This document shows, piece after piece, positions 8,094 through 44,395 of a stretch of DNA of 64,000 nt. The stretch is taken from assembly GCF_009931435.1 (NCBI RefSeq), contig NZ_CP043414.1, one strand, 5' to 3'. The stretch is from Escherichia coli. Lineage in GTDB: Bacteria; Pseudomonadota; Gammaproteobacteria; Enterobacterales; Enterobacteriaceae. The notes under the pieces were generated by a model that was not told where the DNA came from, made no database searches, and was given only the letters and a program-made list of their open reading frames with translations. Position 1 is the stretch's first letter, and the number at the start of each line of letters is the position of its first letter. The position numbers were made by a program, and so were the translations under genes.

Positions 8094-8095
8094 AA

Positions 8096-9865: not shown

Positions 9866-9898
9866 TCACCGTACTGCTTTACTTCATCAAATTTTGAT

Positions 9899-9975
<77 letters not shown>

Positions 9976-10008
9976 TCACCGTACTGCTTTACTTCATCAA
10001 ATTTTAAT

Positions 10009-10085
<77 letters not shown>

Positions 10086-21726: not shown

Positions 21727-21808
21727 CAGGATTCCTCATCTCGCTTTATTGGCGCTCTGCTAAGGCGGAGAAAGGAAACCACCGAAGCAGTAGTATTGGT
21801 CATTATTT

Positions 21809-21824
21809 GCTAACTCGAGTTAGC
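21809..21824. promoter_or_regulatory. 16-bp perfect palindrome GCTAACTCGAGTTAGC (copy 1), candidate operator
   Basis: Exact self-complementary 16-mer with central CG, in fucI/ABC-operon divergent intergenic region. Confidence 0.35.
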
Positions 21825-21868
21825 TTAGGTTTGTAGGCTTTTTATGCACAACTTTTTTGTTGTTGAAA

Positions 21869-21884
21869 TGTGAGGGGCTTCACG
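21869..21884. promoter_or_regulatory. CRP-like site TGTGAGGGGCTTCACG
   Basis: 9/10 match to TGTGA-N6-TCACA half-sites. Confidence 0.3.
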
Positions 21885-22047
21885 AGAAGTGGTTAAAATA
21901 CGATCTCTGTCAAATTATTATTTAGCGGGATAAAAATAAATTTTACGTATAATCAAATGGTTATTAGATTTTAATGGTTATGCATCACAGTTTTAACTCA
22001 AATGATTTGGCTAATTTGTATACCTAAAATAGCTTTAAAAGGCGATC

Positions 22048-22063
22048 GCTAACTCGAGTTAGC
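22048..22063. promoter_or_regulatory. 16-bp perfect palindrome GCTAACTCGAGTTAGC (copy 2), candidate operator
   Basis: Identical to copy 1, 239 bp away, ~130 bp upstream of ABC ATPase start. Confidence 0.35.
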
Positions 22064-22195
22064 AAAATGCGAAGAATAGATTGATACGATGAATATTTAT
22101 TCAAAGGTTATTCGTATCACAGTGGAGATGGCTTTAGTAGCGACGTTTATGCCGTACTTCACATTTTCAGTTTCTGATTATTGAGGAAAGCTGCA

Positions 22196-23695: not shown

Positions 23696-23698
23696 ATT

Positions 23699-24682
23699 AT
23701 GACTATCTCTGTAACCTCTCCAGACAGCAATAATAAGAAAATAAAGATAAATAAAGAACTTTTGATGCGCCTTGCGCCTCTTTTTAGCTTAATTATATTA
23801 GTGCTGTTTTTTAGTTTCAGCTCTCCCTTTTTCTTTAATACCGAAAATATCATGACGATTGCTCTGCAAACGTCGGTTATCGGCATTATGGCCATTGGGG
23901 TAACTTTCGTCATTATTACCGCGGGCATCGATCTTTCATTGGGTTCCGTGGTGGCTTTTTCTGGTGTCGCCGTGGGGATTTGCGCCACACTGGGCCTGCC
24001 GCTGCCAGTGTGTATTATTGCCGGTGTTTTAGCCGGTGGAATGTGCGGCTATGTGAATGGTTTGTTGGTCACTAAAATGACTATTCCACCGTTTATCGCT
24101 ACCTTGGGCCTGATGATGTCCGTCAGAGGTATCAATATGGTGATGACCGACGGGCGCGCCATCTATTTTGCCGATTACCCGATGTTCAAAACGCTCGCTC
24201 AGGGACGCTTGTTTGATGTGCTGCCTTATCCTGTTTTCTACCTGGTCATTGTGGCGCTTGTCGGCGCTTACATCCTGAAGAAAACGGTTATTGGTCGCTA
24301 TGTCTATGCCGTAGGCAGTAATGAAGTTGCTGCTCATCTTTCTGGTATTAAAGTTCAGCGCGTGAAAATTTTCGTCTATGCCTTCTGTGGTTTATTAACC
24401 GGGATTGCGGGTGTCATTCTCGCTTCTCGTCTCAACTCCGGACAACCGACGGTGGGTGTGGGTTATGAGCTGGAAGCTATTGCTGCGGTAGTGATCGGCG
24501 GAACCAGCTTAATGGGCGGTATTGGCACTATTGGCGGCACAATCATTGGCGCTTTCATTATGAGTGTACTGAAAAATGGCCTCAATTTAATGGGGGTCTC
24601 TCAGTTCTGGCAAATGGTCGCGATGGGCGTAGTTGTGGTCGCTGCCGTTTACCTCGATACATTACGCAAAAAGATTCGTTGA
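23699..24682 (+). CDS. Sugar ABC transporter permease (RbsC/AraH family)
   Basis: ~10 TM segments, family layout. Confidence 0.85.
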   Translation: MTISVTSPDSNNKKIKINKELLMRLAPLFSLIILVLFFSFSSPFFFNTENIMTIALQTSVIGIMAIGVTFVIITAGIDLSLGSVVAFSGVAVGICATLGLPLPVCIIAGVLAGGMCGYVNGLLVTKMTIPPFIATLGLMMSVRGINMVMTDGRAIYFADYPMFKTLAQGRLFDVLPYPVFYLVIVALVGAYILKKTVIGRYVYAVGSNEVAAHLSGIKVQRVKIFVYAFCGLLTGIAGVILASRLNSGQPTVGVGYELEAIAAVVIGGTSLMGGIGTIGGTIIGAFIMSVLKNGLNLMGVSQFWQMVAMGVVVVAAVYLDTLRKKIR

Positions 24683-24755
24683 CTTAGGCTCCCTGTTTTA
24701 TCGGGAAACAACTGCCCTGACGTTAAGGGTGATTCACTCAGAACGGAGTACAACA

Positions 24756-25706
24756 ATGAAAACCAGGCATTTTATCTATGCGTTATCTCTGCTGGCTTGC
24801 GTAAGTTCCAGCGCACTGGCGAAGGATTTAAATCTTCCGGTTGTTAGTAAAGGTTTCCAACATGAATTCTGGCAAACCGTAAAAATGGGGACTGAAGCTG
24901 CGGCTAAAGAGTTGGGGGATAAAACCAGCTATGTTGGCCCGGCTGATGAAACGCAAATAGCCGAGCAAATTCAGTTAGTCGAAAATGCGATGGCGCAGAA
25001 ACCGAATGGCTTGCTTCTGGCAGCCCTCGACGCGAATGCGCTCGCCCCACTGGTAGAAACGGCAAATTCACGCGGTATCAAAGTGGTGACCTTTGATTCA
25101 GGCATCAATTCAGACATTCCGGTGAGTTTTGTCGCCACCAATAACCGTAAAGCAGGTGCTCAGGCAGCTGATGCCTTAGCTGCGCAGGTAAATAATAAAG
25201 GGAAAGTTGGGATTATCGCGCACGTTGCAGGAACATCTTCCGCTATTGAACGCTCGGAAGGCTTCATGGAGCGTATGAAAGAAAAATATCCTGACATTAA
25301 AGTCTTACCCGTTCAGTACAGCGATGGTGACCCGCAAAAAGCGATGGATAAAACTATCGATATGATTCAGGCCAATCCCGATCTTGCTGGGATCTATGGC
25401 ACCAATGAAGGTTCAACGCTCGGGGTGGCGAATGCCATTGATAGCCAGAATCTGAAAGGTAAGGTGAAGGTCATTGGTTTTGATAGTACGGAAGCGATTA
25501 TTAACTTCCTGAAGAACGGGGTCATTCAGGGCTTTGTTGTTCAGGATGCATACCAGATTGGCTATCAAGGGATCAAAACGTTGAACGCGGCCCTTTCGGG
25601 GCAAGCCGTTGAAAAAGAGATCGATATTCCCGTGAAATTTGTTAATGCCGAGAATATTAACACGCCAGAAATCGACAAACTCCTGCACCCATTCGGTAAG
25701 AAATAA
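24756..25706 (+). CDS. Periplasmic sugar-binding protein (RbsB-like, type I PBP) with signal peptide
   Basis: MKTRHFIYALSLLACVSSSALA signal peptide; GGAG RBS; ORF-track upstream extension overlaps permease and is rejected. Confidence 0.85.
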   Translation: MKTRHFIYALSLLACVSSSALAKDLNLPVVSKGFQHEFWQTVKMGTEAAAKELGDKTSYVGPADETQIAEQIQLVENAMAQKPNGLLLAALDANALAPLVETANSRGIKVVTFDSGINSDIPVSFVATNNRKAGAQAADALAAQVNNKGKVGIIAHVAGTSSAIERSEGFMERMKEKYPDIKVLPVQYSDGDPQKAMDKTIDMIQANPDLAGIYGTNEGSTLGVANAIDSQNLKGKVKVIGFDSTEAIINFLKNGVIQGFVVQDAYQIGYQGIKTLNAALSGQAVEKEIDIPVKFVNAENINTPEIDKLLHPFGKK

Positions 25707-25759
25707 AAAAATTGGGGATGAATTCTCATCCCCGTTATCTCCAGCGTCAGGGAGGCTTT

Positions 25760-27340
25760 ATGCACAACGGTTATTTTCTCGGTGTCGATGTCGGATCGGC
25801 CAGTGTCAGGGCAGGCGTTTACAGTGCCAGTGGCCACAGGCTGGCATTCGCTACTGCGCCCGTCTCCCAGTTTCGCCCTGGCGGCGAGCGTGTCGAACAG
25901 TCTTCGGCAGAGATCTGGCAACAAGTTTGTAAAACGGTGAAAGAGGCGACAGCTTTGGCAGGCATCCCCATTTCCGCAATTCGCTCACTGGGTTTTGACG
26001 CTACCTGCTCGCTGGTTGTTCTTGATGAACAAGGCCAGGGTTTAGCGGTTTCGTCCGGTGGATCTGCGAATCACGACATTATTATGTGGATGGATCATCG
26101 TGCAACTGTCGAGACGGCGCAGATTAACGCAACGAAGGATCCCGTATTGCGCTACGTTGGCGGCGAAGTGAGCGTCGAGATGGAGTTACCAAAGTTACGT
26201 TGGTTGAAGACGCATCTACCGCAAACCTGGCAGGCCGCTCATCGCTTTTTCGATCTGGCGGATTTTCTGGTCTGGAAAGCAACAGGGCGAGACGTCGCGG
26301 GATTGTGCACGCTAACGTGTAAATGGAATTATCTGGCTCATGAACAACGCTTTAGCCATAGCTTACTGGAATCGGTAGACCTGACCGACATGCTCGAAAG
26401 AATTCCCGCCGAAATTCTTCCGCCTGGTGCTGCCGTGGGAACTTTAACTGCCACAGCTGCTGAAGAATTAGGATTAACGACCAATGTTATCGTGGCCAGT
26501 GGTTTGATTGATGCCCATGCCGGTGGCATGGCGCTGGCTGGCGCGCAGCCATCAGGAACGCTGGCATTGATAAGCGGAACGTCGAATTGCCACATGTTGT
26601 GCAGTGAAAAAGAAATATTCACCCCTGGCGTCTGGGGGCCATACTGGTCGGCCATGTTGCCAAATTACTGGCTAACTGAAGGCGGGCAAAGCGCCGCAGG
26701 GGCGCTGGTGGAGTGGACGCTTCAGGAGTCCGGGGCAAGCGCAAATCTTTTTAACAAGGCGCAGCAACGCGGGTGTCATCCGATTCAACTGATTAATGAA
26801 TGGGTAGCCGCCCTGGAAGCTAACGAGTCAGAACCCACACGAAATTTACATGTGCTTGCCGATCATCACGGCAACCGTTCGCCACGAGCGCGGCCCGATG
26901 CCAGAGGCAGTGTTTATGGCTTAACACTGGAGCGTGGTGAAAATCAGCTCGCGCGGCTTTATCTTGCGACTTTACAGGCAATAGCCTTTGGCACCAGACA
27001 TATTATTGAAACTCTGCGGGAAAATGGGCATACCATTACCCGATTAACATTATGTGGTGGTGCAACGCACAACCCTTTATGGCTACGCGAATATGCAGAC
27101 GTGACAGGTTGCGATATCCACCTGATGCAAGAAGAAGATGCCGTTACGTTGGGCGCAGCAATTAGCGGCGCTGTTGCCAGCGGAGCATGGGGGGATTTTA
27201 CATCTGCGTGTAAAGCAATGGTTGAAGCCGGAGAGGTTATTCAGGTAAATCCACAACGCCGTGAATTTTTAGAGCGTAAATACCGGGTTTACCTGACGCT
27301 TTGGGAGCAACAACAGGCGGTTAACCAACTGATGCAATAA
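25760..27340 (+). CDS. FGGY-family carbohydrate (pentulose-type) kinase
   Basis: GVDVGSASVRAGV N-terminal FGGY motif; ~526 aa; GGAGG RBS. Confidence 0.8.
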   Translation: MHNGYFLGVDVGSASVRAGVYSASGHRLAFATAPVSQFRPGGERVEQSSAEIWQQVCKTVKEATALAGIPISAIRSLGFDATCSLVVLDEQGQGLAVSSGGSANHDIIMWMDHRATVETAQINATKDPVLRYVGGEVSVEMELPKLRWLKTHLPQTWQAAHRFFDLADFLVWKATGRDVAGLCTLTCKWNYLAHEQRFSHSLLESVDLTDMLERIPAEILPPGAAVGTLTATAAEELGLTTNVIVASGLIDAHAGGMALAGAQPSGTLALISGTSNCHMLCSEKEIFTPGVWGPYWSAMLPNYWLTEGGQSAAGALVEWTLQESGASANLFNKAQQRGCHPIQLINEWVAALEANESEPTRNLHVLADHHGNRSPRARPDARGSVYGLTLERGENQLARLYLATLQAIAFGTRHIIETLRENGHTITRLTLCGGATHNPLWLREYADVTGCDIHLMQEEDAVTLGAAISGAVASGAWGDFTSACKAMVEAGEVIQVNPQRREFLERKYRVYLTLWEQQQAVNQLMQ

Positions 27341-27404
27341 GACAAAAGTTGAAAATACTTTTATGATTGTGATTTGACGTCTGGATGTTAACTGGGAAAT
27401 ACCT

Positions 27405-28403
27405 ATGGCTAAAACAGTAGAGCAGATAGCCAGCGACCTGAATTTATCGGTTACGACCGTGCGACTGGTGCTAAATGGAAAAGCGGAACAATATCGAATC
27501 AGCGTCAAAACCCAAACGCGTATCAATGAATATGTTGAACGCTATGGTTATATCATTAATCATTCCGCTCGCAGCCTTAAGCTTAACAAAACTGATACAT
27601 TAGGGTTGATTGTTCCCAACATATCCAACGTCTTTTTTGCTACGCTGGCAGAAAAACTCGAACAACGCTGTCGACGTTCCGGATATCAACTTACAATCAG
27701 TTGCACTTATGATGATGTTGACTATGAAAATAAATTGACGAAAGCATTTATCGCACGAAATGTAGATGGTCTTTTTATTGTTCCTTCGACGCTGGAAAAT
27801 CAGCAGCATCATTTACGCAAAATTCGTAAGCCAATGGTTTTACTCGATCGTGATTTTAAATATACCGATAACGCATTGGTAGAGAGTAATAATATTTCTG
27901 GCGGAGAAAAGCTGACGCAAAATATTCTTGAGGCCGGGCAGGCTCCAGTATGGTTTTTGCTGGGAGATGCCGGTTTGCCGAGTATCAGCGATCGTCTGAC
28001 AGGTTATTTGAATGCGTTGGCAAAAAAAGGGATTACCCATCGCGATTGGGTGCGGGAAGGTCCGGTAAATACTCCGGAAGGCGGCTATGTCATTATGGAA
28101 AAACTCATTGAAGAGCAGGGATGTCCGCAGGCATTTATCGCCTCGTCTTTACCTGTGCTTGAAGGCGCTGTCCGCGCGATTCGCGACCGTCTTGGCGCTG
28201 TACCGCCAGAAATCAATATTGGCACTTTCGATGAACATCCTATGCTGGGATTTCTCGCCAACAATGTCTGGTCAATGCAGCAGGATGAAAATGCCTGGGC
28301 AGAAAAAGCGTTCGAAATGATGTTAAGCGCGATCGAAGAAAGACCAGTAAAAAAAACAGTTAAAGTAGAAATGAAATTAATTAAGCGCATAAGAAAAAAA
28401 TAA
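27405..28403 (+). CDS. LacI-family transcriptional regulator
   Basis: N-terminal HTH (TVEQIASDLNLSVTTVRLVLNG) plus periplasmic-binding-like effector domain. Confidence 0.85.
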   Translation: MAKTVEQIASDLNLSVTTVRLVLNGKAEQYRISVKTQTRINEYVERYGYIINHSARSLKLNKTDTLGLIVPNISNVFFATLAEKLEQRCRRSGYQLTISCTYDDVDYENKLTKAFIARNVDGLFIVPSTLENQQHHLRKIRKPMVLLDRDFKYTDNALVESNNISGGEKLTQNILEAGQAPVWFLLGDAGLPSISDRLTGYLNALAKKGITHRDWVREGPVNTPEGGYVIMEKLIEEQGCPQAFIASSLPVLEGAVRAIRDRLGAVPPEINIGTFDEHPMLGFLANNVWSMQQDENAWAEKAFEMMLSAIEERPVKKTVKVEMKLIKRIRKK

Positions 28404-28535
28404 TAATCGCCAAAAGATATCAGGCTACTGAACAATGATATTCAGTGGCCTCCCCTTACTAAAAATAACCCCGTCTTCATTTGCGGTGCTGTTTTACGCA
28501 ACAAGGCGAGCTGAAACTGTATCTGGAGAATAGAA

Positions 28536-29183
28536 ATGGAAAGAACACGTTTATCCCGTGAAATAATTGAAACCTGTCTGGAAATGACGCGCCTTGGGTT
28601 AAATCAGGGGACAGCGGGGAATGTCAGCACACGTTTTGAAAACGGCATGTTGATTACTCCCAGCGGTATTCCTTATGAAAGAATGACGGAGAATATGATT
28701 GTCTATGTTGATGGCAACGGCAAATACGAAGAAGGTAAGATTCCTTCCAGCGAATGGCGTTTCCATATGGCGGCCTATCAAAGCAGACCGGATGCCAACG
28801 CGGTTGTTCACAATCATGCCGTTCATTGCACGGCAGTTTCCATTCTTAACCGACCGATCCCTGCTATTCACTACATGATTGCGGCGGCTGGCGGTAATTC
28901 TATTCCTTGCGCGCCTTATGCGACCTTTGGAACTCGGGAACTTTCTGAACATGTTGCGCTGGCTCTCAAAAATCGTAAGGCAACTTTGTTACAACATCAT
29001 GGGCTTATCGCTTGTGAGGTGAATCTGGAGAAAGCGTTATGGCTGGCGCATGAAGTTGAAGTGCTGGCGCAACTTTACCTGACGACCCTGGCGATTACGG
29101 ACCCGGTGCCAGTGCTGAGCGATGAAGAGATTGCCGTAGTGCTGGAGAAATTCAAAACCTACGGGTTACGGATTGAAGAGTAA
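28536..29183 (+). CDS. fucA: L-fuculose-1-phosphate aldolase
   Basis: Near-complete match to FucA from memory (..GTAGNVS..HNHAVHCTAVSILNR..); 215 aa. Confidence 0.9.
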   Translation: MERTRLSREIIETCLEMTRLGLNQGTAGNVSTRFENGMLITPSGIPYERMTENMIVYVDGNGKYEEGKIPSSEWRFHMAAYQSRPDANAVVHNHAVHCTAVSILNRPIPAIHYMIAAAGGNSIPCAPYATFGTRELSEHVALALKNRKATLLQHHGLIACEVNLEKALWLAHEVEVLAQLYLTTLAITDPVPVLSDEEIAVVLEKFKTYGLRIEE

Positions 29184-29207: not shown

Positions 29208-30359
29208 ATGATGGCTAACAGAATGATTCTGAACGAAACGGCATGGTTTGGTCGGGGGGCTGTTGGAGCTTTAACCGATGAGGTGAAACGCCGTGGTTAT
29301 CAGAAGGCACTGATCGTCACCGATAAAACGCTGGTGCAATGCGGCGTGGTGGCGAAAGTGACCGATAAGATGGATGCTGCAGGGCTGGCATGGGCGATTT
29401 ACGATGGTGTAGTGCCCAACCCGACAATTACTGTCGTCAAAGAAGGGCTTGGTGTATTCCAGAGTAGCGGTGCGGATTACCTGATCGCTATTGGTGGTGG
29501 TTCTCCACAGGACACGTGTAAAGCGATTGGCATCATCAGCAACAACCCGGAATTCGCCGATGTGCGCAGTCTGGAAGGGCTTTCCCCGACCAATAAACCC
29601 AGTGTACCGATTCTGGCAATCCCCACCACAGCAGGCACTGCGGCAGAAGTGACCATTAACTATGTGATCACTGACGAAGAAAAACGACGCAAGTTCGTTT
29701 GTGTTGATCCGCATGATATCCCGCAGGTGGCATTTATTGACGCTGACATGATGGATGGTATGCCGCCTGCGCTGAAAGCCGCGACGGGTGTCGATGCGCT
29801 CACTCATGCTATTGAGGGGTATATTACCCGTGGCGCGTGGGCGCTAACCGATGCACTGCACATTAAAGCGATTGAAATCATTGCTGGGGCGCTGCGAGGA
29901 TCGGTTGCTGGTGATAAGGATGCCGGAGAAGAAATGGCGCTCGGGCAGTATGTTGCGGGTATGGGCTTCTCGAATGTTGGGTTAGGGTTGGTGCATGGTA
30001 TGGCGCATCCACTGGGCGCGTTTTATAACACGCCACACGGTGTTGCGAACGCCATCCTGTTACCGCATGTCATGCGCTATAACGCTGACTTTACCGGTGA
30101 GAAGTACCGCGATATCGCGCGCGTTATGGGCGTGAAAGTGGAAGGTATGAGCCTGGAAGAGGCGCGTAATGCCGCTGTTGAAGCGGTATTTGCTCTCAAC
30201 CGTGATGTCGGTATTCCGCCACATTTGCGTGATGTTGGTGTACGCAAGGAAGACATTCCGGCACTGGCGCAGGCGGCTCTGGACGATGTTTGTACCGGTG
30301 GCAACCCGCGTGAAGCAACGCTTGAGGATATTGTAGCGCTTTACCATACCGCCTGGTAA
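29208..30359 (+). CDS. fucO: L-1,2-propanediol oxidoreductase (lactaldehyde reductase)
   Basis: Fe-ADH family; MANRMILNETAWFGRGAVGAL N-terminus. Confidence 0.9.
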   Translation: MMANRMILNETAWFGRGAVGALTDEVKRRGYQKALIVTDKTLVQCGVVAKVTDKMDAAGLAWAIYDGVVPNPTITVVKEGLGVFQSSGADYLIAIGGGSPQDTCKAIGIISNNPEFADVRSLEGLSPTNKPSVPILAIPTTAGTAAEVTINYVITDEEKRRKFVCVDPHDIPQVAFIDADMMDGMPPALKAATGVDALTHAIEGYITRGAWALTDALHIKAIEIIAGALRGSVAGDKDAGEEMALGQYVAGMGFSNVGLGLVHGMAHPLGAFYNTPHGVANAILLPHVMRYNADFTGEKYRDIARVMGVKVEGMSLEEARNAAVEAVFALNRDVGIPPHLRDVGVRKEDIPALAQAALDDVCTGGNPREATLEDIVALYHTAW

Positions 30360-30413
30360 TTGCGCTGATGTGACGATGCCGGATGCGACGTTTGCGCCGT
30401 ATCCGGCACGCCG

Positions 30414-31280
<867 letters not shown>

Positions 31281-32648
31281 TTAATCGCAGGCAACGATCT
31301 TCATCGCCAGGCCACCACGAGAGGTTTCGCGGTACTTGGCATTCATATCTTTACCTGTTTCGTACATGGTTTCGATAACTTTATCGAGGCAGACACGTGG
31401 TTCGCTGGTACGGCGTAGCGCCATACGTGCAGCGTTCACCGCTTTTACTGCCGCAATGGCGTTACGCTCAATGCACGGTACCTGAACTTGTCCAGCAACC
31501 GGGTCACAAGTCAGACCGAGGTTGTGTTCCATGGCGATTTCCGCCGCGATGCACACCTGCGCCGGGCTTGCGCCTAACAGTTCTGCCAGACCAGCTGCCG
31601 CCATAGAGCACGCCACGCCAACTTCACCCTGGCAACCCACTTCAGCACCAGAAATCGAGGCGTTCATTTTATAAAGAGAGCCAATGGCGCTGGCAACCAG
31701 CAGGTAACGAGCCAGTGAGTTAGCGTTCACTTCGCGGATAAACTTGTCGTAGTACGCCAGCACTGCCGGGATAATCCCGCACGCACCGTTAGTCGGCGCA
31801 GTCACCACGCGACCGCCCGCAGCGTTCTCTTCGTTCACTGCCAGTGCGAACATGTTGATCCAATCAACAACCGCCATCGGGTCAGTGGTGGTTTTATCCT
31901 GGCTGACCAGCATCCGGCGCAGTGCCGCAGCGCGGCGTGGAACGCGCAGTTTGCCTGGCAACACGCCTTCGGTGGCAATACCGCGCTCAATACCGCCACG
32001 CATTACTTCCCAGACGTTCGCCAGGTGCTGTTCCAGTTCTTCTTTGCTGTGCAGCGCCAGCTCGTTTTTCATCATCAGACCAGAGAGTGACAGCCCGGTC
32101 TCCTGACAATGTTTTTGAAGATCGGCAGCGGAACTGTACGGATAAGGAACTTCAACCGGTGCGCTATCCTGCTGGCCAAAATGTTCTTCATCAACAATAA
32201 AGCCACCGCCGATAGAGTAGTAAGTCTGGCTGTAAACGACTTTATCGCCCGCCAGCGCGGTAATGCGCATGCCGTTTTCATGCAGAGAAAGGTTATCGGC
32301 ATGGAAGTTCATGCACTGATCAACCGGGAACTCCACTTCGTGCTGACCGTTTGCCAACATCAGGCGACCATGAGTATTCACATCCTGAATAAAACCAGGG
32401 ATGGAATCGATATCCACGGTATCCGGCAGGTTACCCGCCAGACCCATAATTATGGCGATATCTGTGTGGTGGCCTTTACCGGTCAGAGAGAGCGAGCCGT
32501 ACACGTCAACCACCACGCGGGTCACGTCTTTAAGCAGGTTACGGGCAATCAGATCGTCGGTAAATTGCTTACCCGCTTTCATTGGTCCAACGGTATGAGA
32601 ACTGGAAGGGCCAATGCCGATTTTGAAAATATCGAATACGCTAATCAT
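31281..32648 (-). CDS. sdaB: L-serine dehydratase 2
   Basis: 455 aa; MISVFDIFKIGIGPSSSHTVGPM N-terminus; downstream of sdaC. Confidence 0.9.
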   Translation of the reverse strand: MISVFDIFKIGIGPSSSHTVGPMKAGKQFTDDLIARNLLKDVTRVVVDVYGSLSLTGKGHHTDIAIIMGLAGNLPDTVDIDSIPGFIQDVNTHGRLMLANGQHEVEFPVDQCMNFHADNLSLHENGMRITALAGDKVVYSQTYYSIGGGFIVDEEHFGQQDSAPVEVPYPYSSAADLQKHCQETGLSLSGLMMKNELALHSKEELEQHLANVWEVMRGGIERGIATEGVLPGKLRVPRRAAALRRMLVSQDKTTTDPMAVVDWINMFALAVNEENAAGGRVVTAPTNGACGIIPAVLAYYDKFIREVNANSLARYLLVASAIGSLYKMNASISGAEVGCQGEVGVACSMAAAGLAELLGASPAQVCIAAEIAMEHNLGLTCDPVAGQVQVPCIERNAIAAVKAVNAARMALRRTSEPRVCLDKVIETMYETGKDMNAKYRETSRGGLAMKIVACD

Positions 32649-32705
32649 AGGAAATACATCGCGTTAAAACGGAGGAAGCGCCGCCCGAAAGCGGCGCGAA
32701 AGGAC

Positions 32706-33995
32706 TTAGCTGAACAGAGAGTAGAAGATTGCGGAGATTGCAATCAGACCCATCACGACAACGAATACGTTGCTGATGTGACCGCTGTATTTACGCATTG
32801 CCGGTACTTTCTGAATTGCGTACATCGGCATCAGGAACAGGATCATCGCGATGATTGGGCCGCCCAGGGTTTCAATCATACCCAGGATGCTCGGGTTCAG
32901 GGTGGCAACAATCCAGGTCGTTACCAGCATGAACAGCGCAGTGATACGGTTCAGCTTGTTGATTTCGATAGACTTACCTTTACCACGCAGAGATTTAATC
33001 ACCATACCGTTGAAGCCTTCACGTGCACCCAGGTAGTGGCCGAGGAAGGATTTGGTGATAGCGATAATCGCGATAATCGGAGCCATCCACGCGATAACCG
33101 GTGCGTTAAAGTGGTTAGCCAAGTAAGACAGAATCGAGATGTTCTGCTCTTTAGCCGCAGCCAGGTCTGCCGGAGTCAGGCTCAGTACGCAGCTGAATAC
33201 GAAGAACATTACGGTCAGCACCATCATGATGTGTGCGAATGCCAGGATCTTCGAGCATTTCTGTTCTGCCATATCGCCGTACTCTTCACGCTTCGCAACG
33301 GCGAAAGAAGAGATGATTGGAGAGTGGTTGAACGAGAACACCATGACCGGAATCGCCAGCCACAGGGTCATCCACAGACCGTTGCCGGTTGCCGATGCAG
33401 TGTCCAGAGACAGCGTTTCCAGTGCTGCGCCGTTCCACTGCGGGATCAGGTACAGAGCCAGCAGCATCAGTACACCAACAAACGGGAATACCAGAATACT
33501 CATCGCCTTCACGATCATCTGCTCACCGAAGCGAACAATGGTCATCATACCCACGATCAGGATCAGAGACAGAATCGCACGCGGCGGCGGCGTCATACCC
33601 AGCTGGTGAGACATGAAGCTTTCAACCGTGTTGGTGATTGCCACACTGTAAACCAGCAGGATCGGGTAGATAGCAAAGAAGTAGAGCAGGGTAATCAGTT
33701 TACCTGCACCAATACCAAAGTGTTCTTCTACAACCTCGGTGATGTCTTCGCCCGGGTTTTTACCAGACAGTACGAAGCGAGTCAGGCCGCGGTGAGCAAA
33801 AAACGTCATCGGGAACGCAAGGATAGCCATGATGATCAGCGGGATCATACCGCCAACACCGGCGTTGATTGGCAGGAACAGCACGCCCGCGCCGATTGCC
33901 GTGCCGTAAAGGCCCAGCATCCACATGGTGTCTGTCTTGCGCCATGCACTACGTGAGTCTTTCGACACAATCGTGCTGGTTTGAGTCGTTTCCAT
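32706..33995 (-). CDS. sdaC: Serine:H+ symporter SdaC
   Basis: 429 aa HAAAP-family transporter; [21 protein letters not shown]-terminus. Confidence 0.9.
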
Positions 33996-34551
33996 CAATT
34001 TCTCCTGGAGGAATGCAAATAATTCAGCTTTTAGCCAGTTCAGCCCGGGAAGGTGCCTGACCGTAAAAATGAAATCTGTCTATCGGCGATGGCTTAATCA
34101 TTTTCCGCCGTAATAATTTGAGGGCGGAAAGATACACACAAGTTATGTATCTATCAGTGATCTTGATCTCAAATACAATAATCTACTTGGAAGATAGATA
34201 ATCTCAACGCTTTACTCTGTAAATCAAAAGTAAAAGAGAATTTAAGGGCAATATTTGCCCATTAAACGACATCTGACCTCTTCCGGGGCGCGCAATATAT
34301 GTAGGTTGAGCTGAAAAAATCAATACTTTTAGTGAATAATGGGGATAATTTATTTTTCATAGCGATAAAATGTGGTTTGTGAAAACAGGGAAACGTTTGC
34401 GTTGCAATATAAATTGTATGACATATTAACTGTGATGATATTTATCGCGTGAGGATGGTAAGAAACATTTATATAACAAATGAAATGAATTGATGAGTAA
34501 GTAACCAAAAACGAGAAAACCCGGCAACAAACGTCACCGGGGAAGGGGAGA

Positions 34552-35916
34552 TTACGTGCAGATTTCGTAGCAAGGGATGTAGGCTGAGCCTGGCAACTTC
34601 ATACGATGCTGGGCAACAAAACCCTGTAGCAGGTCGTCCATACGACGCATAATCTCTTTATCGCCGTTGATTTTGTAAGGACCAAACTCTTCAATGGCGC
34701 GAATACCGACTTCTTTTACGTTACCCGCCACAATACCGGAGAACGCACGACGCAGATCAGCGGCCAAAACTTCTACTGGCTGATCCGGATACAGTTTCAG
34801 ATTAGCCATGTTCTCGTGAGACGGCTCAAACGGCATTTGCAGATCGGGCGCAATGCGCATTGACCAGTTAAAGCTGTAGGCATCGCCCGTATCGCGACGG
34901 TTTTCTTTCACCAGCGGCATCGATTTTTTCATCTGACGAGCGACTTCAGCGGCGTCATCAATGATGATGCGATAATGGCGTCGCGCGTTTTCTCCCAGCG
35001 TATGCACGACAAACTCGTCCAGTACGCGGAAGTAGTCTGCGCTCTCTTTCGGGCCGGTGAGGATCAATGGTAAAACCTGATCTTTGTTGGCCGGGTTCAT
35101 TAAAATTCCCAGCAAATACAGCAACTCTTCTGCCGTACCCACACCGCCAGGGAAGATAATGATACCGTGAGCGATACGGACAAACGCTTCCAGACGTTTT
35201 TCGATATCTGGCATGATGATCAATTCGTTGACCAGCGGGTTAGGCGGTTCAGCGGCGATAATCGACGGCTCTGTCATACCAATAAAACGACTGTCTTTGT
35301 AACGCTGCTGTGCGTGTCCGACCGCAGCACCTTTCATCGGCGCTTCCATCGCTCCCGGACCACAGCCGGTGCAGATATTCAGCTCACGCAGGCCCAGCTG
35401 ATTCCCGACGCGACGGGCATACAAATACTCGTTTTCGTTAATTGAGTGCCCGCCCCAGCAGACCACCATATTTGGCGCTTCACCGACATGCAGTGCGCGA
35501 GCGTTACGCAAGATGGAAAAGACCAGGTTAGTGATGTGGACGGAGTTGTCGAGATTCAGGTTGGGAAAACGAACGGTGTTATGGATTTGCCCGTAAACGA
35601 AGAGAATGTCACGCAGAACCGCGAACAAGTTGGCCTGCAAAGCGCGGATAATACGCCCATCGACAAAAGCTTCTTCCGGGGGATTAATCAGTTCCAGCTT
35701 TACGCCGCGTTCACGGCGCAGGACGTTAATATCGAAATTTTCAAAACGAGACAGCAATTCTTTGCTGTTATCGGTCAAACTACCGGAGTTCAGTACGGCA
35801 AGTGAACAGTTGCGAAACAGTTGATAGAGGTCGCTGCTGGCGGTGCGTTTAAGCATATCCACTTCCAGCTGCGACAACATATCCATGGAGCCAAGCGGGC
35901 TAATATGTGTAATCAA
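34552..35916 (-). CDS. ppnN: Nucleotide 5'-monophosphate nucleosidase PpnN (LOG family)
   Basis: 454 aa; synteny between sdaC and queF. Confidence 0.85.
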
Positions 35917-36027
35917 GAAAAACTCCTTATGGGACGAATATCGTCATTCCCTTTGATTACAATAGCCCTGCCTGATGACCTTTCACAACCTTCTGCGTGA
36001 ATCCAGCACGCAAAATTGAGAAAAAAT

Positions 36028-36876
36028 TTATTGCCGAACCAGTCTTGTGGTCGATGGGACAAAATCGCTATTACTGCGCCACGGGTTAATGTCCAGACCG
36101 CCACGACGGGTATAACGTGCGTAAACGCTCAATTTCTCTGGCTGGCAGAAGCGTAACAGGTCATTAAAGATGCGTTCCACGCACTGTTCGTGGAACTCGT
36201 TGTGATGACGGAATGAGACCAGGTAACGCAGCAGTTTTTCTCTGTCAATTTGGCGTCCACGATACTGAATTTGGATCGAACCCCAATCTGGTTGATGGGT
36301 GATCAGGCAGTTTGATTTCAGCAGGTGGCTGACGAGCGTCTCTTCTACTACTTTTTCACCACTGGTGGCATTCTCAAGATAGTCAGTAGTGAATTCATAG
36401 TTATCGATAGTGATATCCTGGTCATCAATGCAGGTGCCATTGAAATGACCTATCGGCTGGCCTTCCAGTTCATCAAGACGATATAACGCCACGCTAACCT
36501 TACCCTGAGCGCAAGTGCTTAAGTCGCGCTCCAGCGTCTGGCGCACCTCATCCCAGTTATTAAAACGCGTCTGGTTAAAACTGTTGAGATAAAGCTTAAA
36601 ACTCTTCGACTCAATCAGATTTACGCTGGTGTAATCAAGTTCAACATGACCGACAGCGACCTGCGGCAAACCTTTCGCATTCAGCCAGGAAAGTTCATAC
36701 AGCGTCCAGATATCCGTACCGTGAAAAGGCAGGTTATCCGCTTTCAGACCCAGCGGGTCGCGATTCAGGCTGCGTGGAACGCCTTGCAGTAGGCTAGCGT
36801 CATAGGTATCCCGGTAATCGGTTGATTTTCCAAGAGTCAGGCCCGCAAGTGCCTGATGGTTTGCATAAGAAGACAT
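36028..36876 (-). CDS. queF: NADPH-dependent 7-cyano-7-deazaguanine reductase
   Basis: 282 aa two-domain QueF; synteny with syd. Confidence 0.85.
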
Positions 36877-36943
36877 GTTTCACCGTCATAAACCAGATAA
36901 ACTAAACGACAAGTGTATCTGGTTTAAGTGAAGAGAGAAATTA

Positions 36944-37489
36944 GTGGACGATTTGACCGCACAAGCCCTGAAAGATTTTACTGCACGCTACTGCGATGCG
37001 TGGCATGAAGAGCATAAAAGCTGGCCGTTAAGTGAGGAACTGTACGGCGTTCCTTCACCGTGCATTATTTCAACCACCGAAGACGCTGTATACTGGCAAC
37101 CCCAGCCGTTTACCGGTGAACAAAATGTAAACGCGGTTGAACGTGCTTTTGATATTGTGATACAACCCACGGTTCATACTTTTTACACGACCCAGTTTGC
37201 CGGGGATATGCACGCGCAGTTTGGCGATATCAAACTGACATTGCTGCAAACCTGGAGTGAAGACGACTTCCGTCGGGTGCAGGAAAATCTGATTGGTCAT
37301 CTGGTGACTCAGAAAAGGCTAAAACTGCCGCCCACGCTATTTATCGCAACGCTGGAAGAAGAGTTAGAGGTCATCTCGGTGTGTAATCTCTCCGGTGAAG
37401 TGTGCAAAGAGACGCTGGGAACACGCAAACGGACGCATTTAGCCTCAAATCTTGCGGAATTCCTTAATCAACTTAAGCCTCTTCTGTAA
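36944..37489 (+). CDS. syd: SecY-interacting protein Syd
   Basis: 181 aa; synteny adjacent to csrB. Confidence 0.85.
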
Positions 37490-37508
37490 TCCAAATACCC
37501 CATCTTGT

Positions 37509-37526
37509 TGTGAGAGATCTCTTACA
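37509..37526. promoter_or_regulatory. UvrY-type binding palindrome TGTGAGAGATCTCTTACA upstream of csrB
   Basis: 16/18 self-complementary; ~190 bp upstream of csrB 5' end; matches known BarA/UvrY-dependent csrB activation site from memory. Confidence 0.5.
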
Positions 37527-37708
37527 GACTCTGTAGGAGATCGCCAGGAAATAAGCGAATACTTAAAAAGATAAGAATCGTTATTTTCATTTAAAATCAA
37601 TATATTGCTTGTTAATTCTTAACTTTCATATGAAATTTTCCTTAAGGCATTGTCTGTAAGCGCCTTGTAAGACTTCGCGAAAAAGACGATTCTATCTTCG
37701 TCGACAGG

Positions 37709-38067
37709 GAGTCAGACAACGAAGTGAACATCAGGATGATGACACTTCTGAAGGACACACCAGGAGGGTGTTTCAGGGAAAGGCTTCTGGATGAAGCGAA
37801 GAGGATGACGCAGGACGCGTTAAAGGACACCTCCAGGATGGAGAATGAGAACCGGTCAGGATGATTCGGTGGGTCAGGAAGGCCAAGGACACTTCAGGAT
37901 GAAGTATCATATCGGGGTGGTGTGAGCAGGAAGCAATAGTTCAGGATGAACGATTGGCCGCAAGGCCAGAGGAAAAGTTGTCAAGGATGAGCAGGGAGCA
38001 ACAAAAGTAGCTGGAATGCTGCGAAACGAACCGGGAGCACTGTGAATACAGTGCTCCCTTTTTTTAT
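37709..38067 (+). ncRNA. csrB: CsrB, CsrA-sequestering sRNA (~360 nt, many CAGGA(U/A)G repeats, terminal hairpin + U-run)
   Basis: Starts GAGTCAGACAACGAAGTGAACATCAGGATGATG; dense repeated AGGA/GGA motifs throughout; terminator GGGAGCACTGTGAATACAGTGCTCCC + T8. Confidence 0.9.
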
Positions 38068-38110
38068 TCCTGCTATCCTTCGCGGCAGTTTTTCTTATTG
38101 AGGTTGCTTT

Positions 38111-38440
38111 ATGACCACTCATGACCGCGTTCGTCTCCAGTTGCAGGCGCTTGAAGCGTTACTGCGTGAACATCAGCACTGGCGAAACGATGAACCCCAG
38201 CCGCATCAATTTAACAGTACCCAACCGTTCTTTATGGACACCATGGAACCACTGGAGTGGTTGCAGTGGGGGCTGATCCCGCGAATGCACGATTTGTTAG
38301 ATAATAACCAGCCATTACCGGGCGCTTTTGCTGTTGCACCCTATTATGAAATGGCGCTGGCGACGGACCATCCGCAACGCGCGCTTATTCTGGCTGAGCT
38401 GGAAAAACTGGATGCTCTTTTTGCGGATGATGCGAGCTGA
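38111..38440 (+). CDS. yqcC: DUF446 protein YqcC
   Basis: 109 aa; stop overlaps truC start (ATGA). Confidence 0.8.
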   Translation: MTTHDRVRLQLQALEALLREHQHWRNDEPQPHQFNSTQPFFMDTMEPLEWLQWGLIPRMHDLLDNNQPLPGAFAVAPYYEMALATDHPQRALILAELEKLDALFADDAS

Positions 38441-39222
38441 TGCTGGAAATAATCTACCAGGATGAATGGCTGGTTGCGGTAAATAAACCCTCCGGCTGGC
38501 TGGTTCACCGCAGCTGGCTGGATCGCGACGAGAAAGTAGTGGTCATGCAAACCGTGCGTGACCAGATTGGTCAGCATGTATTTACCGCGCATCGGCTGGA
38601 TCGACCGACGTCCGGCGTATTGCTGATGGGACTATCCAGCGAGGCCGGACGGCTGTTGGCACAACAGTTTGAACAGCACCAAATCCAGAAACGTTACCAT
38701 GCGATTGTGCGCGGCTGGCTGATGGAAGAGGCTGTGCTGGATTATCCGCTGGTGGAAGAACTGGACAAAATCGCTGATAAATTCGTCCGCGAAGATAAAG
38801 GTCCACAGCCAGCGGTGACACATTATCGCGGTCTGGCGACCGTAGAAATGCCTGTAGCGACCGGACGTTACCCGACTACGCGCTACGGTCTGGTGGAACT
38901 GGAGCCGAAAACAGGACGCAAGCATCAGCTCCGTCGCCATCTTGCCCACTTGCGCCATCCGATTATTGGCGACAGCAAACATGGTGATTTACGTCAAAAT
39001 CGTAGCGGTGCTGAACATTTTGGCCTTCAGCGGTTAATGCTGCATGCCAGTCAGTTGTCATTGACACATCCTTTTACTGGCGAGCCGTTGACTATTCACG
39101 CGGGCCTGGACGGCACCTGGATGCAGGCGTTATCACAATTTGGCTGGCGGGGTCTGCTTCCTGAAAATGAAAGGGTTGAGTTCAGTGCGCCATCGGGTCA
39201 GGATGGAGAGATAAGTTCCTAA
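38440..39222 (+). CDS. truC: tRNA pseudouridine65 synthase TruC
   Basis: RluA-family motifs ([12 protein letters not shown]); 260 aa. Confidence 0.9.
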
Positions 39223-39239
39223 TCCAGGGAGAAAACGGT

Positions 39240-39689
39240 ATGGCGGAAATTGGTATTTTTGTGGGCACAATGTACGGAAATTCGCTGTTAGTGGCGGAAG
39301 AAGCGGAAGCAATTCTGACCGCGCAGGGCCACAAAGCAACGGTATTTGAAGATCCTGAATTAAGCGACTGGCTGCCCTATCAGGATAAGTATGTTCTGGT
39401 GGTTACGTCCACGACCGGGCAGGGCGACCTTCCTGATAGCATTGTGCCGCTCTTTCAGGGAATTAAAGATACCCTGGGCTTCCAGCCGAATCTGCGTTAT
39501 GGCGTGATTGCGCTCGGCGACAGTAGTTATGTGAATTTCTGCAATGGCGGCAAACAGTTCGATGCCTTGTTGCAGGAACAGAGTGCGCAGCGGATAGGGG
39601 AAATGCTGCTGATTGACGCCAGTGATAACCCGGAACCGGAAACGGAATCAAATCCGTGGGTCGAACAGTGGGGCACGCTGTTGTCCTGA
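39240..39689 (+). CDS. yqcA: Flavodoxin-like protein YqcA
   Basis: 149 aa, flavodoxin fold ([11 protein letters not shown]). Confidence 0.85.
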
Positions 39690-39727
39690 AAAATTGCCGT
39701 TTTAAGCAAACTGAATCGAATCTTTTC

Positions 39728-39782
39728 AGGCAAATGCCAGTAAAAACTGCTTCATAGCGCGGATTTTTACTGGCGTTTGCCT
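39728..39782 (+). other. Long imperfect hairpin (19-bp arms AGGCAAATGCCAGTAAAAA / TTTTTACTGGCGTTTGCCT, 17-nt loop) downstream of yqcA
   Basis: Inverted repeat read directly; one G-U/mismatch; no clean U-run after it. Confidence 0.4.
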
Positions 39783-40108
39783 GGAGTCAAGCGATCCATT
39801 TCATACTCTTCTTTATTTCTTCGTTTTAATCCTTCCTTTCTTGTTCTTGTTTTCATTTCCGTGAAGTGGATTCCACCGTCCAGGGCTAATGCCAAAATCG
39901 GGCCTCATTGAACGCATTAATGTTGTGTTGTTGCACGGTGAGCCGCTATGGCGCGCTTTTTATACTGCTATTGCCAGATATAAACACGCGCCGTATTCGG
40001 CGAACGACCTATAAAAACGGCAAAAAACACCCTACGTCACCTCTGATTTCCTGGCGATGTCGCAGTCCAGAGTGAGCGTGGCTAACGCGAATTTTCAGGA
40101 GTGCAACA

Positions 40109-41461
40109 ATGAGTTCTTTAAGTCAGGCTGCGAGCAGTGTGGAAAAACGCACGAATGCTCGTTACTGGATAGTGGTGATGTTGTTTATCGTCACATCCTT
40201 CAACTACGGCGACCGCGCTACGCTCTCTATCGCCGGTTCGGAAATGGCCAAAGATATCGGCCTTGATCCTGTGGGAATGGGCTATGTGTTCTCTGCTTTC
40301 TCATGGGCTTATGTTATCGGGCAGATCCCTGGTGGCTGGTTGCTGGACCGTTTTGGTTCAAAACGCGTCTACTTCTGGTCGATCTTTATCTGGTCGATGT
40401 TTACCTTGCTGCAAGGCTTCGTCGATATCTTTAGTGGATTCGGCATTATCGTTGCCCTGTTTACGCTGCGCTTCCTGGTCGGGCTTGCTGAAGCGCCATC
40501 TTTCCCCGGTAACAGTCGCATTGTAGCGGCCTGGTTTCCGGCGCAGGAAAGGGGAACTGCAGTGTCTATTTTTAACTCCGCCCAATACTTCGCAACGGTG
40601 ATCTTCGCGCCGATTATGGGCTGGCTGACTCATGAAGTGGGTTGGTCACATGTCTTCTTCTTCATGGGCGGTCTGGGCATTGTCATCAGCTTTATCTGGT
40701 TGAAAGTCATCCATGAGCCAAATCAACATCCGGGCGTAAATCAGAAAGAGCTGGAGTACATCGCCGCGGGTGGTGCGCTGATCAATATGGATCAGCAAAA
40801 TACCAAAGTTAAAGTGTCGTTCAGCGTGAAGTGGGGGCAGATCAAACAGCTGCTCGGGTCACGGATGATGATCGGCGTTTATATCGGTCAGTACTGTATC
40901 AACGCCCTGACTTACTTCTTCATTACCTGGTTTCCGGTTTATCTGGTGCAGGCACGCGGGATGTCGATTCTGAAAGCGGGCTTTGTGGCTTCCGTACCGG
41001 CGGTTTGCGGTTTTATCGGCGGCGTGTTGGGGGGGATTATTTCAGACTGGCTGATGCGCCGCACAGGTTCGCTGAACATTGCGCGTAAAACACCGATCGT
41101 GATGGGCATGTTGCTATCAATGGTGATGGTGTTCTGTAACTACGTCAACGTTGAGTGGATGATCATCGGCTTTATGGCGCTGGCCTTCTTCGGTAAGGGC
41201 ATTGGGGCGCTGGGTTGGGCAGTAATGGCAGATACCGCGCCAAAAGAGATCAGCGGTCTTTCCGGTGGCCTGTTCAATATGTTTGGTAACATTTCCGGTA
41301 TCGTCACGCCAATCGCAATTGGTTATATCGTTGGCACGACTGGCTCCTTTAATGGGGCGCTGATTTATGTTGGTGTTCATGCCCTAATCGCGGTACTGAG
41401 CTACCTGGTGCTGGTGGGCGATATCAAGCGTATCGAGCTGAAACCTGTCGCGGGGCAATAA
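40109..41461 (+). CDS. gudP: MFS D-glucarate/galactarate transporter
   Basis: 450 aa MFS anion:cation symporter layout; first gene of gud operon. Confidence 0.9.
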
Positions 41462-41462
41462 G

Positions 41463-42803
41463 ATGACGACACAATCCAGTCCTGTTATTACTGATATGAA
41501 GGTTATTCCGGTCGCCGGGCACGACAGCATGTTGCTTAATATTGGTGGTGCACATAACGCATATTTCACCCGCAATATTGTGGTACTCACCGATAACGCC
41601 GGGCATACCGGTATTGGTGAAGCGCCCGGCGGAGAGGTGATTTATCAAACACTGGTCGATGCTATTCCGATGGTGCTGGGCCAGGAGATCGCACGACTGA
41701 ATAAAGTGGTTCAGCAGGTGCATAAAGGTAATCAGGCAGCCGATTTTGATACCTTCGGCAAAGGTGCCTGGACTTTTGAATTGCGCGTTAATGCCGTGGC
41801 GGCGCTGGAAGCTGCCTTGCTTGACCTGCTAGGTAAGGCGCTGAATGTTCCGGTCTGCGAACTGTTAGGGCCAGGCAAGCAACGCGATGCTATTACTGTC
41901 CTTGGTTATCTGTTTTATATCGGTGATCGGACCAAAACCGATCTTCCTTATCTGGAAAATACGCCGGGCAACCATGAGTGGTATCAATTGCGGCATCAGA
42001 AAGCGATGAACAGCGAAGCCGTTGTGCGTCTGGCGGAAGCTTCACAGGATCGCTATGGCTTTAAAGATTTCAAACTTAAGGGCGGAGTGTTACCTGGCGA
42101 GCAAGAAATCGACACTGTTCGTGCATTGAAGAAACGCTTCCCGGATGCGCGAATTACCGTTGATCCCAACGGTGCATGGCTGCTTGATGAAGCCATTTCT
42201 CTGTGCAAAGGGCTGAATGATGTTCTCACCTATGCCGAAGACCCGTGCGGCGCTGAGCAGGGTTTCTCCGGACGTGAAGTGATGGCGGAGTTTCGACGGG
42301 CGACCGGCTTGCCCGTCGCGACTAACATGATCGCCACCAACTGGCGCGAAATGGGCCATGCGGTGATGCTCAATGCGGTAGATATTCCACTTGCCGATCC
42401 GCATTTCTGGACGCTTTCCGGTGCAGTCCGCGTGGCGCAACTTTGCGACGACTGGGGGCTGACCTGGGGCTGCCATTCTAATAACCACTTTGATATCTCT
42501 CTGGCGATGTTTACCCATGTGGGCGCGGCGGCACCGGGTAATCCTACCGCTATCGATACCCACTGGATTTGGCAGGAGGGCGATTGTCGTCTGACCAAAA
42601 ATCCGCTGGAGATTAAAAACGGAAAAATTGCCGTTCCTGATGCGCCCGGTCTGGGCGTGGAACTGGACTGGGAACAGGTACAAAAGGCACATGAGGCCTA
42701 TAAACGTCTGCCTGGCGGTGCGCGTAACGACGCAGGCCCGATGCAATACCTGATCCCCGGCTGGACCTTTGACCGTAAACGTCCCGTTTTCGGCCGTCAT
42801 TGA
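41463..42803 (+). CDS. gudX: Glucarate dehydratase-related protein (enolase superfamily)
   Basis: 446 aa paralog of downstream GudD ([11 protein letters not shown].. shared motifs). Confidence 0.9.
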
Positions 42804-42823
42804 TTTTGAAAAAGGACATAGAT

Positions 42824-44164
42824 ATGAGTTTTCAATTTACGACGCCTGTTGTTACTGAAATGCAGGTCATCCCGGTGGCGGGCCATGACAGTATGCTGAT
42901 GAATCTGAGTGGTGCACACGCACCGTTCTTCACGCGTAATATTTTGATTATCAAAGATAATTCTGGTCACACTGGCGTAGGGGAAATTCCCGGCGGCGAG
43001 AAAATCCGTAAAACGCTGGAAGATGCAATTCCGCTGGTGGTGGGTAAAACGCTGGGTGAATACAAAAACGTTCTGACGCTGGTGCGTAATACATTTGCCG
43101 ATCGTGATGCCGGCGGGCGCGGTTTGCAGACATTTGATTTGCGGACCACTATTCATGTGGTTACTGGGATAGAAGCGGCAATGCTGGATCTGCTGGGGCA
43201 GCATCTGGGGGTTAACGTGGCATCGCTGCTGGGCGATGGTCAACAGCGTAGCGAAGTCGAAATGCTCGGTTATCTGTTCTTCGTCGGTAATCGCAAAGCC
43301 ACACCGCTGCCGTATCAAAGCCAGCCGGATGACTCATGCGACTGGTATCGCCTGCGTCACGAAGAAGCGATGACGCCGGATGCGGTGGTGCGCCTGGCGG
43401 AAGCGGCATATGAAAAATATGGCTTCAACGATTTCAAACTGAAGGGCGGTGTACTGGCCGGAGAAGAAGAAGCCGAATCTATTGTGGCACTGGCGCAACG
43501 CTTCCCGCAGGCGCGTATTACCCTCGATCCTAACGGTGCCTGGTCGCTGAACGAAGCGATTAAAATCGGTAAATACCTGAAAGGTTCGCTGGCTTATGCA
43601 GAAGATCCGTGTGGTGCGGAGCAAGGTTTCTCCGGGCGTGAAGTGATGGCAGAGTTCCGTCGCGCGACTGGCCTGCCGACCGCAACCAATATGATCGCCA
43701 CCGACTGGCGGCAGATGGGCCATACGCTCTCGTTACAATCCGTTGATATCCCGCTGGCGGATCCGCATTTCTGGACGATGCAAGGTTCGGTACGTGTGGC
43801 GCAAATGTGCCATGAATTTGGCCTGACCTGGGGGTCACACTCTAACAACCACTTCGATATTTCCCTGGCGATGTTTACCCATGTAGCCGCTGCTGCACCG
43901 GGTAAAATTACTGCTATTGATACGCACTGGATCTGGCAGGAAGGCAATCAGCGTCTGACCAAAGAACCGTTTGAGATCAAAGGCGGGCTGGTACAGGTGC
44001 CGCAAAAACCAGGATTGGGCGTAGAAATCGATATGGATCAGGTGATGAAAGCCCACGAGCTGTATCAGAAACACGGGCTTGGCGCGCGTGACGATGCAAT
44101 GGGAATGCAGTATCTGATTCCTGGCTGGACGTTCGATAACAAGCGTCCGTGCATGGTGCGTTAA
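42824..44164 (+). CDS. gudD: D-glucarate dehydratase
   Basis: [33 protein letters not shown]-terminus; start set to ATG 42824. Confidence 0.9.
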
Positions 44165-44285
44165 GACAGAAAACCAAAACCGGCTCTGTCAGGAGCCGGG
44201 TTGAGTCTGATGCCAAACGCAAAATTGCTTGTTGCGCTACGTATCAGGCCTACATTATTTTTTTAATTCATTGAATTTAATTGGT

Positions 44286-44327
44286 GTTTATGCCGGATAA
44301 GGCGTTAACGCCGCATCCGGCATAAAC
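44286..44327. repeat. REP element (GCCGGATAAGGCGTTAACGCCGCATCCGGC palindrome) between gudD and barA
   Basis: Canonical REP-type palindrome read in sequence. Confidence 0.5.
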
Positions 44328-44395
44328 ACAGGCACCTTGTCACCAGTCTGAAACCAGCGTTATAAAAAGCCGATTGCTACTCGACAAGACGTCCA

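Follow-up and report, generated by a model that had tools for sequence, protein, structure and literature searches.

The spacer between syd and yqcC in this stretch of Escherichia coli DNA raises a question of identity and a question of variation: whether it holds an intact csrB gene, the template of the small RNA that sequesters CsrA, together with the regulatory sites upstream of it, and what is to be made of a single-base departure from the K-12 sequence in one of the GGA repeats of that RNA. We examined the locus within the window, by which we mean the whole stretch of 64,000 nucleotides that was analysed, and compared it with K-12, with other complete E. coli genomes and with published experiments on K-12 csrB.

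Identity and boundaries of the csrB RNA

An Rfam scan of the whole window returned a plus-strand match to RF00018 (CsrB/RsmB) at 37709-38068, scoring 379.8 bits where the gathering score is 71 (E = 1.9e-110). The match spans model positions 1-356 of 356, that is, the full length of the model. The start of the RNA was placed by promoter geometry. Since the UvrY inverted repeat has been published as centered at -183/-182 (PMC4682653), the first transcribed base corresponds to 37700, the G of GTCGACAGGG. With this start, the interval 37700-38068 measures 369 nt, in agreement with the published length of the RNA, and A327 and A331, the positions at which RNase E is reported to cut, become A38026 and A38030, both of which are indeed A (PMC5027483).

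Alignment to K-12 showed identity at 364 of the 369 positions of the RNA (98.6%), from which binding and sequestration of several CsrA dimers may be inferred, and at 613 of the 622 positions of the entire syd-yqcC spacer (98.6%); identity of the spacer with the closest genome was 99.8%. Of 5426 complete E. coli genomes, 5425 contain the 622-bp spacer, with a median of one and a maximum of two places in each, and all of these places except one were chromosomal. In E. coli MARGA_3 (NZ_CM170101.1), csrB matched in two separate places with a break near the equivalent of window position 37790, which suggests an insertion within csrB in that genome. RefSeq/PGAP records carry no csrB annotation, and in all listed genomes yqcC is the only gene annotated under the match. 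That the interval codes for a protein was discounted, since no open reading frame of at least 80 aa lies between 37489 and 38111 and the RNA model accounts for the whole interval.

An earlier note on this DNA had called the interval 37509-38067 a csrB gene preceded by a UvrY-type palindrome and had proposed an Rfam scan for CsrB as a check. The full-length RF00018 match, the K-12 alignment and the published UvrY site all agree with that call. The 3' end it gave lies within one base of the Rfam end; its start, however, is the start of the palindrome, the RNA itself beginning at 37700. We conclude that the interval comprises the csrB gene of an E. coli chromosome and the whole of the control region upstream of it (probability about 0.97), a reading that no observation contradicts. 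It is an already known locus, in its usual place and intact. Coordinates of the locus, its neighbors and the positions that differ from K-12 are collected in Table 1.

Table 1. Features of the csrB locus and its neighborhood, and single-nucleotide differences (SNPs) from K-12, in window positions
Feature	Position	Strand	Remarks
syd	36944..37489	+	SecY-interacting protein; upstream neighbor; from the ORF and K-12 synteny
SNP	37506		window T, K-12 G; 3 bp 5' of the UvrY site
UvrY~P binding site	37509..37526		18-nt inverted repeat TGTGAGAGATCTCTTACA; identical to the K-12 footprinted site
Partial extra half-site	37532..37540	+	TGTAGGAGA; 5 bp 3' of the inverted repeat
Candidate IHF site	37595..37607	+	AATCAATATATTG; exact match to WATCAANNNNTTR; about -105 to -93
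SNP	37601		window T, K-12 A; unspecified NNNN of the IHF consensus
SNP	37604		window A, K-12 G; unspecified NNNN of the IHF consensus
SNP	37608		window C, K-12 A; one base 3' of the IHF consensus
Candidate weak core promoter	37665..37693	+	placed only by spacing to +1 = 37700
csrB	37700..38068	+	369-nt non-coding RNA with 22 GGA; would sequester CsrA, by analogy with K-12
SNP	37751		window A, K-12 C; directly 5' of GGA 3
SNP	37766	+	window G, K-12 T; loop of the GGA 4 hairpin; CAGGAGGG vs CAGGATGG
SNP	37886		window A, K-12 G; directly 5' of GGA 14; CCAAGGAC vs CCAGGGAC
SNP	37910		window T, K-12 C; U-G in place of a predicted C-G pair
RNase E "necessary cleavage site"	38024..38032	+	AAACGAACC; putative, mapped from PMC5027483 onto +1 = 37700
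Intrinsic terminator	38033..38068	+	terminator scan; paired in the Rfam alignment
SNP	38039		window A, K-12 G; terminator stem, G-U becomes A-U
yqcC	38111..38440	+	downstream neighbor; annotated within the matching region of 5,400 E. coli genomes
barA	44396..47152	-	tripartite sensor kinase phosphorylating UvrY; 918-aa ORF, K-12 synteny

The upstream control region

The inverted repeat TGTGAGAGATCTCTTACA, whose arms agree at 8 of 9 positions, is centered 182/183 bp before 37700 (-183/-182); its first base lies 191 bp upstream of the start of the csrB RNA, and the stop codon of syd lies 19 bp before the site. No second match turned up in the 64-kb window when up to three mismatches were tolerated, 0.07 matches being expected by chance, and the repeat is invariant in the alignment of the window, K-12 and strain 2017-02-2CC. 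Zere et al. (2015; PMC4682653) established this 18-mer as the K-12 UvrY~P site by ChIP-exo and DNase I footprinting, and reported both the occupancy of the site by UvrY~P in vivo and the need for it in csrB transcription in K-12, making use of a barA deletion. The same study gives the partial repeat TGTAGGAGA at the 5-bp spacing seen here. The 18-mer of the csrB UvrY site in E. coli and Salmonella is identical to that of the window, so that there is no difference for csrB; the UvrY sites of csrC, in contrast, are less symmetric (TGTGAGACATTGCCGATA; PMC4682653) and absent from the window.

A putative IHF site needed for full csrB expression has been located in K-12 between two UvrY crosslinking regions, at -222 to -142 and at -56 to +25 (PMC4682653). 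The IHF consensus WATCAANNNNTTR matches ten times in the window where three matches are expected, so that a match alone is weak evidence; it is from its position relative to the crosslinking regions that we infer the match at 37595-37607 to be the published putative site.

A simple promoter scan found no sigma-70-like promoter in 37400-38200. Spacing to the RNA start points to a candidate -35 element TTGTAA (37665-37670) and a candidate -10 element GATTCT (37688-37693) separated by a 17-bp spacer, which together agree with the consensus at 7 of 12 positions and fall below the threshold of the scan. A weak core promoter of this kind fits an activator-dependent promoter with strict dependence on UvrY. 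Note also an inverted repeat, GACGA-N8-TCGTC, at 37685-37702, which runs across the candidate -10 element and the csrB +1 and was flagged by the scan as a minus-strand terminator-like site.

GGA motifs, predicted fold and the 3' end of the RNA

The interval 37700-38068 holds 22 GGA, 15 AGGA, 9 CAGGANG and 7 CAGGA[T/A]G motifs. Shuffles that preserve dinucleotides gave 0.23 +/- 0.48 CAGGA[T/A]G motifs with a maximum of 2, and the numerous CAGGA(U/A)G motifs claimed for the gene by the earlier note were thereby borne out. Elsewhere on both strands of the window, AGGA occurs at most 4 times per 369-nt stretch (plus-strand mean 1.06). All 22 GGA triplets occupy identical positions in the csrB sequences of the window and of K-12. 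In the minimum free energy fold, 11 GGA lie in hairpin loops and 8 others have all three bases unpaired; the only fully paired ones are GGA 11 (37840) and GGA 22 (38034), the latter in the terminator stem. The +263-369 fragment studied in K-12 holds five GGA, one of them inside the terminator, and its last CsrA sites were numbered 20 and 21 (PMC5027483); the list of GGA triplets in the window agrees with that study both in the count for the fragment and in the numbering of the last CsrA sites.

The terminator consists of an 11-bp stem (38033-38058; GGGAGCACTGT/ACAGTGCTCCC) with a 4-nt loop, followed by TTTTTTTATT. The AAACGAACC segment lies just 5' of it, is unpaired in the predicted fold and is identical to K-12. 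In an E. coli csrB orthologue, a segment of this kind is expected to separate the last CsrA site from the terminator, as this one does.

Differences from K-12

Over the syd-yqcC spacer the window differs from K-12 by nine SNPs, four of them upstream and five in the csrB RNA (Table 1). All nine leave the GGA triplets, the predicted stems and the specified bases of the protein-binding consensus sequences in place, and the RNA retains each of its predicted local hairpins. The K-12 gene shares with that of the window the position between syd and yqcC, the length, the positions of the 22 GGA triplets, the terminator and the RNase E site, and also the UvrY inverted repeat with its half-site and the IHF consensus. 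The spacer of strain 2017-02-2CC (NZ_AP027764.1) matches at 621 of 622 positions, including the G at 37766 and all of the promoter SNPs; at 37910 it carries C, whereas the window carries T, which turns a predicted C-G stem pair into U-G. Divergence from K-12 is 1.4% in the csrB RNA and about 3.4% in the flanking 18 kb, a difference in the direction expected from purifying selection on what would be a functional RNA. For the five SNPs in the RNA, the likeliest reading is that they mark a lineage and are neutral.

A rare variant in the loop of GGA 4

The difference at 37766 lies in the hairpin of GGA 4, ACACC-AGGAG-GGUGU, where the U of the K-12 loop AGGAU is replaced by G. The hairpin is predicted to be kept, with free energies of -6.1 kcal/mol in the window and -6.5 kcal/mol in K-12. 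The frequency of the substitution was determined with a query of 59 nt around 37766, free of other K-12 differences, which matched 5246 complete E. coli genomes. The G-bearing 59-mer was exact in 17 of these (~0.3%), and nearly all of the others were one base off. The 17 genomes come from humans, dog, cattle, goat and food in several countries and were sequenced independently. Among the 18 genomes that best match the 20 kb surrounding the locus in the window, 17 are these carriers. Because the carriers are the nearest relatives of the window at this locus, G at 37766 marks a lineage and not a strain.

That a base at odds with the great majority of E. coli genomes should be a sequencing or assembly error in the window is a natural suspicion, to which we give next to no credence: the identical 59-mer recurs in 17 genomes sequenced independently of one another, and these are at the same time the closest to the window over 20 kb. 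The CAGGAGGG repeat is a real polymorphism of a small lineage. The earlier note had read the repeat as a possible strain-specific substitution; the difference from the CAGGATGG of K-12 is real, but its being shared by 17 genomes removes the specificity to one strain. The best identity of any complete E. coli genome in RefSeq over the 20 kb examined (30000-50000) is at most 99.1%, with K-12 at about 96.6%, which places the source strain in a lineage that has been sampled only sparsely.

A scan of species representatives for the allele at 37766 in outgroups, with the 26-mer CACCAGGANGGTGTTTCAGGGAAAGG, matched only sequence derived from E. coli and carrying T, namely the GTDB representative of E. 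coli and a 797-base contig filed under Phyllobacterium. Other species differ within the 26-mer, so that the scan gave no outgroup allele by which to polarize the T/G difference. The contig (NZ_PVBT01000018.1, filed as Phyllobacterium myrsinacearum) consists of an E. coli csrB fragment and an adapter-like end, ...AGAACTTCCGATCT, and the csrB fragment in it is almost certainly an assembly contamination.

A polymorphism may still have consequences for the RNA. The alternative to neutrality is that the csrB allele of this lineage, through the changes at 37766, 37751 and 37886, alters the number of CsrA dimers bound or the tightness of their binding, and in this way shifts the set-point of the Csr system. 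The G is rare and common to a coherent group of relatives, it lies inside a hairpin loop of the CsrA-binding type, and of the five SNPs in the RNA three fall on bases that adjoin a GGA. The SELEX consensus for CsrA, RUACARGGAUGU, has a U exactly at the position of 37766, directly after the GGA; in that consensus, however, only ACA, GGA and the final GU are invariant or nearly so (PMC7652899). The CsrB repeats of K-12 themselves have U, A or C at the base after GGA, and the Rfam consensus is in lower case at the position of 37766, which denotes a variable position. GGA 4 and its stem are intact, and with 22 redundant sites a modest change at a single one should matter little. The lower divergence of the RNA relative to its flanks likewise fits purifying selection together with neutral drift. 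An altered set-point is, in our assessment, very unlikely, and a measurable change in CsrA sequestration due to the rare allele (in the loop of GGA 4 and beside GGA 3 and GGA 14) is about as unlikely. For the U-to-G change at 37766 taken singly, a functional effect is unlikely because the base sits in the loop, directly after a GGA that is itself intact, where the CsrA consensus is weakly conserved. We favor the reading in which the five differences in the RNA mark a lineage and are otherwise neutral.

Gene neighborhood and the proximity of barA

csrB lies between syd and yqcC, with all three genes on the same strand, and the order syd-csrB-yqcC-truC-yqcA-gudPXD-barA is that of K-12 and is found in 2017-02-2CC as well. 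The BarA protein encoded in the window is full length and identical to K-12 BarA at 916 of 918 aa, with no gaps. The gene is convergent with csrB and its 3' end lies 6.3 kb past the csrB terminator, as the earlier note had said in placing barA 6 kb downstream. The same note had also put csrB 3 kb from barA-proximal genes, a distance that fits no boundary in the window; gudP starts 2.0 kb downstream of csrB. Neither uvrY nor csrA is encoded in the 64-kb window, and the presence of both in the genome is assumed.

The two genes act in one signaling pathway and their arrangement is kept among the E. coli genomes examined, which might speak for a functional reason behind a distance of 6 kb, either co-regulation in cis or transfer together as a module. 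Such a reason seems to us highly improbable, given that six genes intervene (yqcC, truC, yqcA and gudPXD), none of them known in the Csr pathway, that barA is on the strand opposite to csrB, and that neither UvrY, which binds the csrB promoter, nor csrC, its second target, is encoded in the window. The order of genes is no more than that of K-12. The nearness of csrB and barA is ordinary synteny and gives no evidence of a functional link in cis; nothing seen points beyond inherited gene order.

Several other features of the window were recorded. A full-length match to RF00022 (199 bits) identifies the GcvB small RNA at 14409-14614 on the minus strand, adjoining gcvA as in K-12, and three tandem tRNA genes at 9792-10085 (minus strand) align to the three tandem tRNA-Met genes of K-12. 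Between amiC and this tRNA-Met cluster lies a segment of about 5.5 kb (4222-9788) that is not in K-12 and that encodes a BglG-type antiterminator (PRD and CAT_RBD domains), a PTS EIIC/EIIB permease, a class I/II aminotransferase, a SIS-domain protein and a 2-hydroxyacid dehydrogenase. About 6.8 kb at 21738-28557 stand in place of K-12 fucP and the fucP-fucA spacer and encode an ABC ATPase, a permease, a periplasmic sugar-binding protein, a FGGY-family kinase and a LacI-type regulator; between fucI and fucA, its place in K-12, there is no fucose permease gene. At 55627-59213 (minus strand), a LemA-family gene is followed by three paralogous genes with TPM domains, where K-12 has only ygcG. No transposase domains were found among the open reading frames of these three segments absent from K-12, the genes of which are metabolic or have to do with transport. 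They lend no support to a Shigella origin of the window, a reading prompted by the limit of 99.1% on identity to complete E. coli genomes over 20 kb. Finally, two very short CRISPR arrays of about 2.5 repeat units each (60458-60608 and 60763-60915; 61-nt period, repeat GAGTTCCCCGCGCCAGCGGGGATAAACCG) sit where the K-12 record annotates CRISPR after queE.

A proposed pathway for the locus

The steps that follow are published for K-12 and are transferred to the window on the strength of near-identity. They concern the binding of UvrY~P and the dependence of csrB on IHF and BarA (PMC4682653), the site preference of CsrA and its bridging of sites (PMC7652899), and the decay of CsrB, including RNase E cleavages at A327 and A331 (PMC5027483). 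BarA would phosphorylate UvrY, itself encoded outside the window, and UvrY~P would bind the inverted repeat 183 bp upstream of the csrB start. IHF, probably at its candidate site, would bend the DNA so that UvrY~P reaches the weak promoter, and transcription would begin at 37700. The resulting CsrB would be a string of short hairpins, with GGA in loops and in single-stranded spacers. Each CsrA dimer would bridge two GGA sites, so that one CsrB molecule could tie up several dimers and titrate CsrA away from its mRNA targets. The transcript would end at the intrinsic terminator, and decay would begin with RNase E cutting the unpaired AAACGAACC segment before it. CsrA bound at GGA 20 and 21 would block this cleavage, and CsrD with unphosphorylated EIIA-Glc would relieve the block. 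The sequence elements on which this pathway draws are all present and intact in the window.

Significance

The exact coordinates of the csrB RNA and of its UvrY, IHF and RNase E sites are useful for annotating the window. The single new fact is how often the CAGGAGGG variant of repeat 4 occurs in the population, where it is a rare lineage marker. Were the improbable effect on CsrA sequestration true, the allele would offer a natural example of how the Csr set-point is tuned through single repeat units of a sponge RNA.
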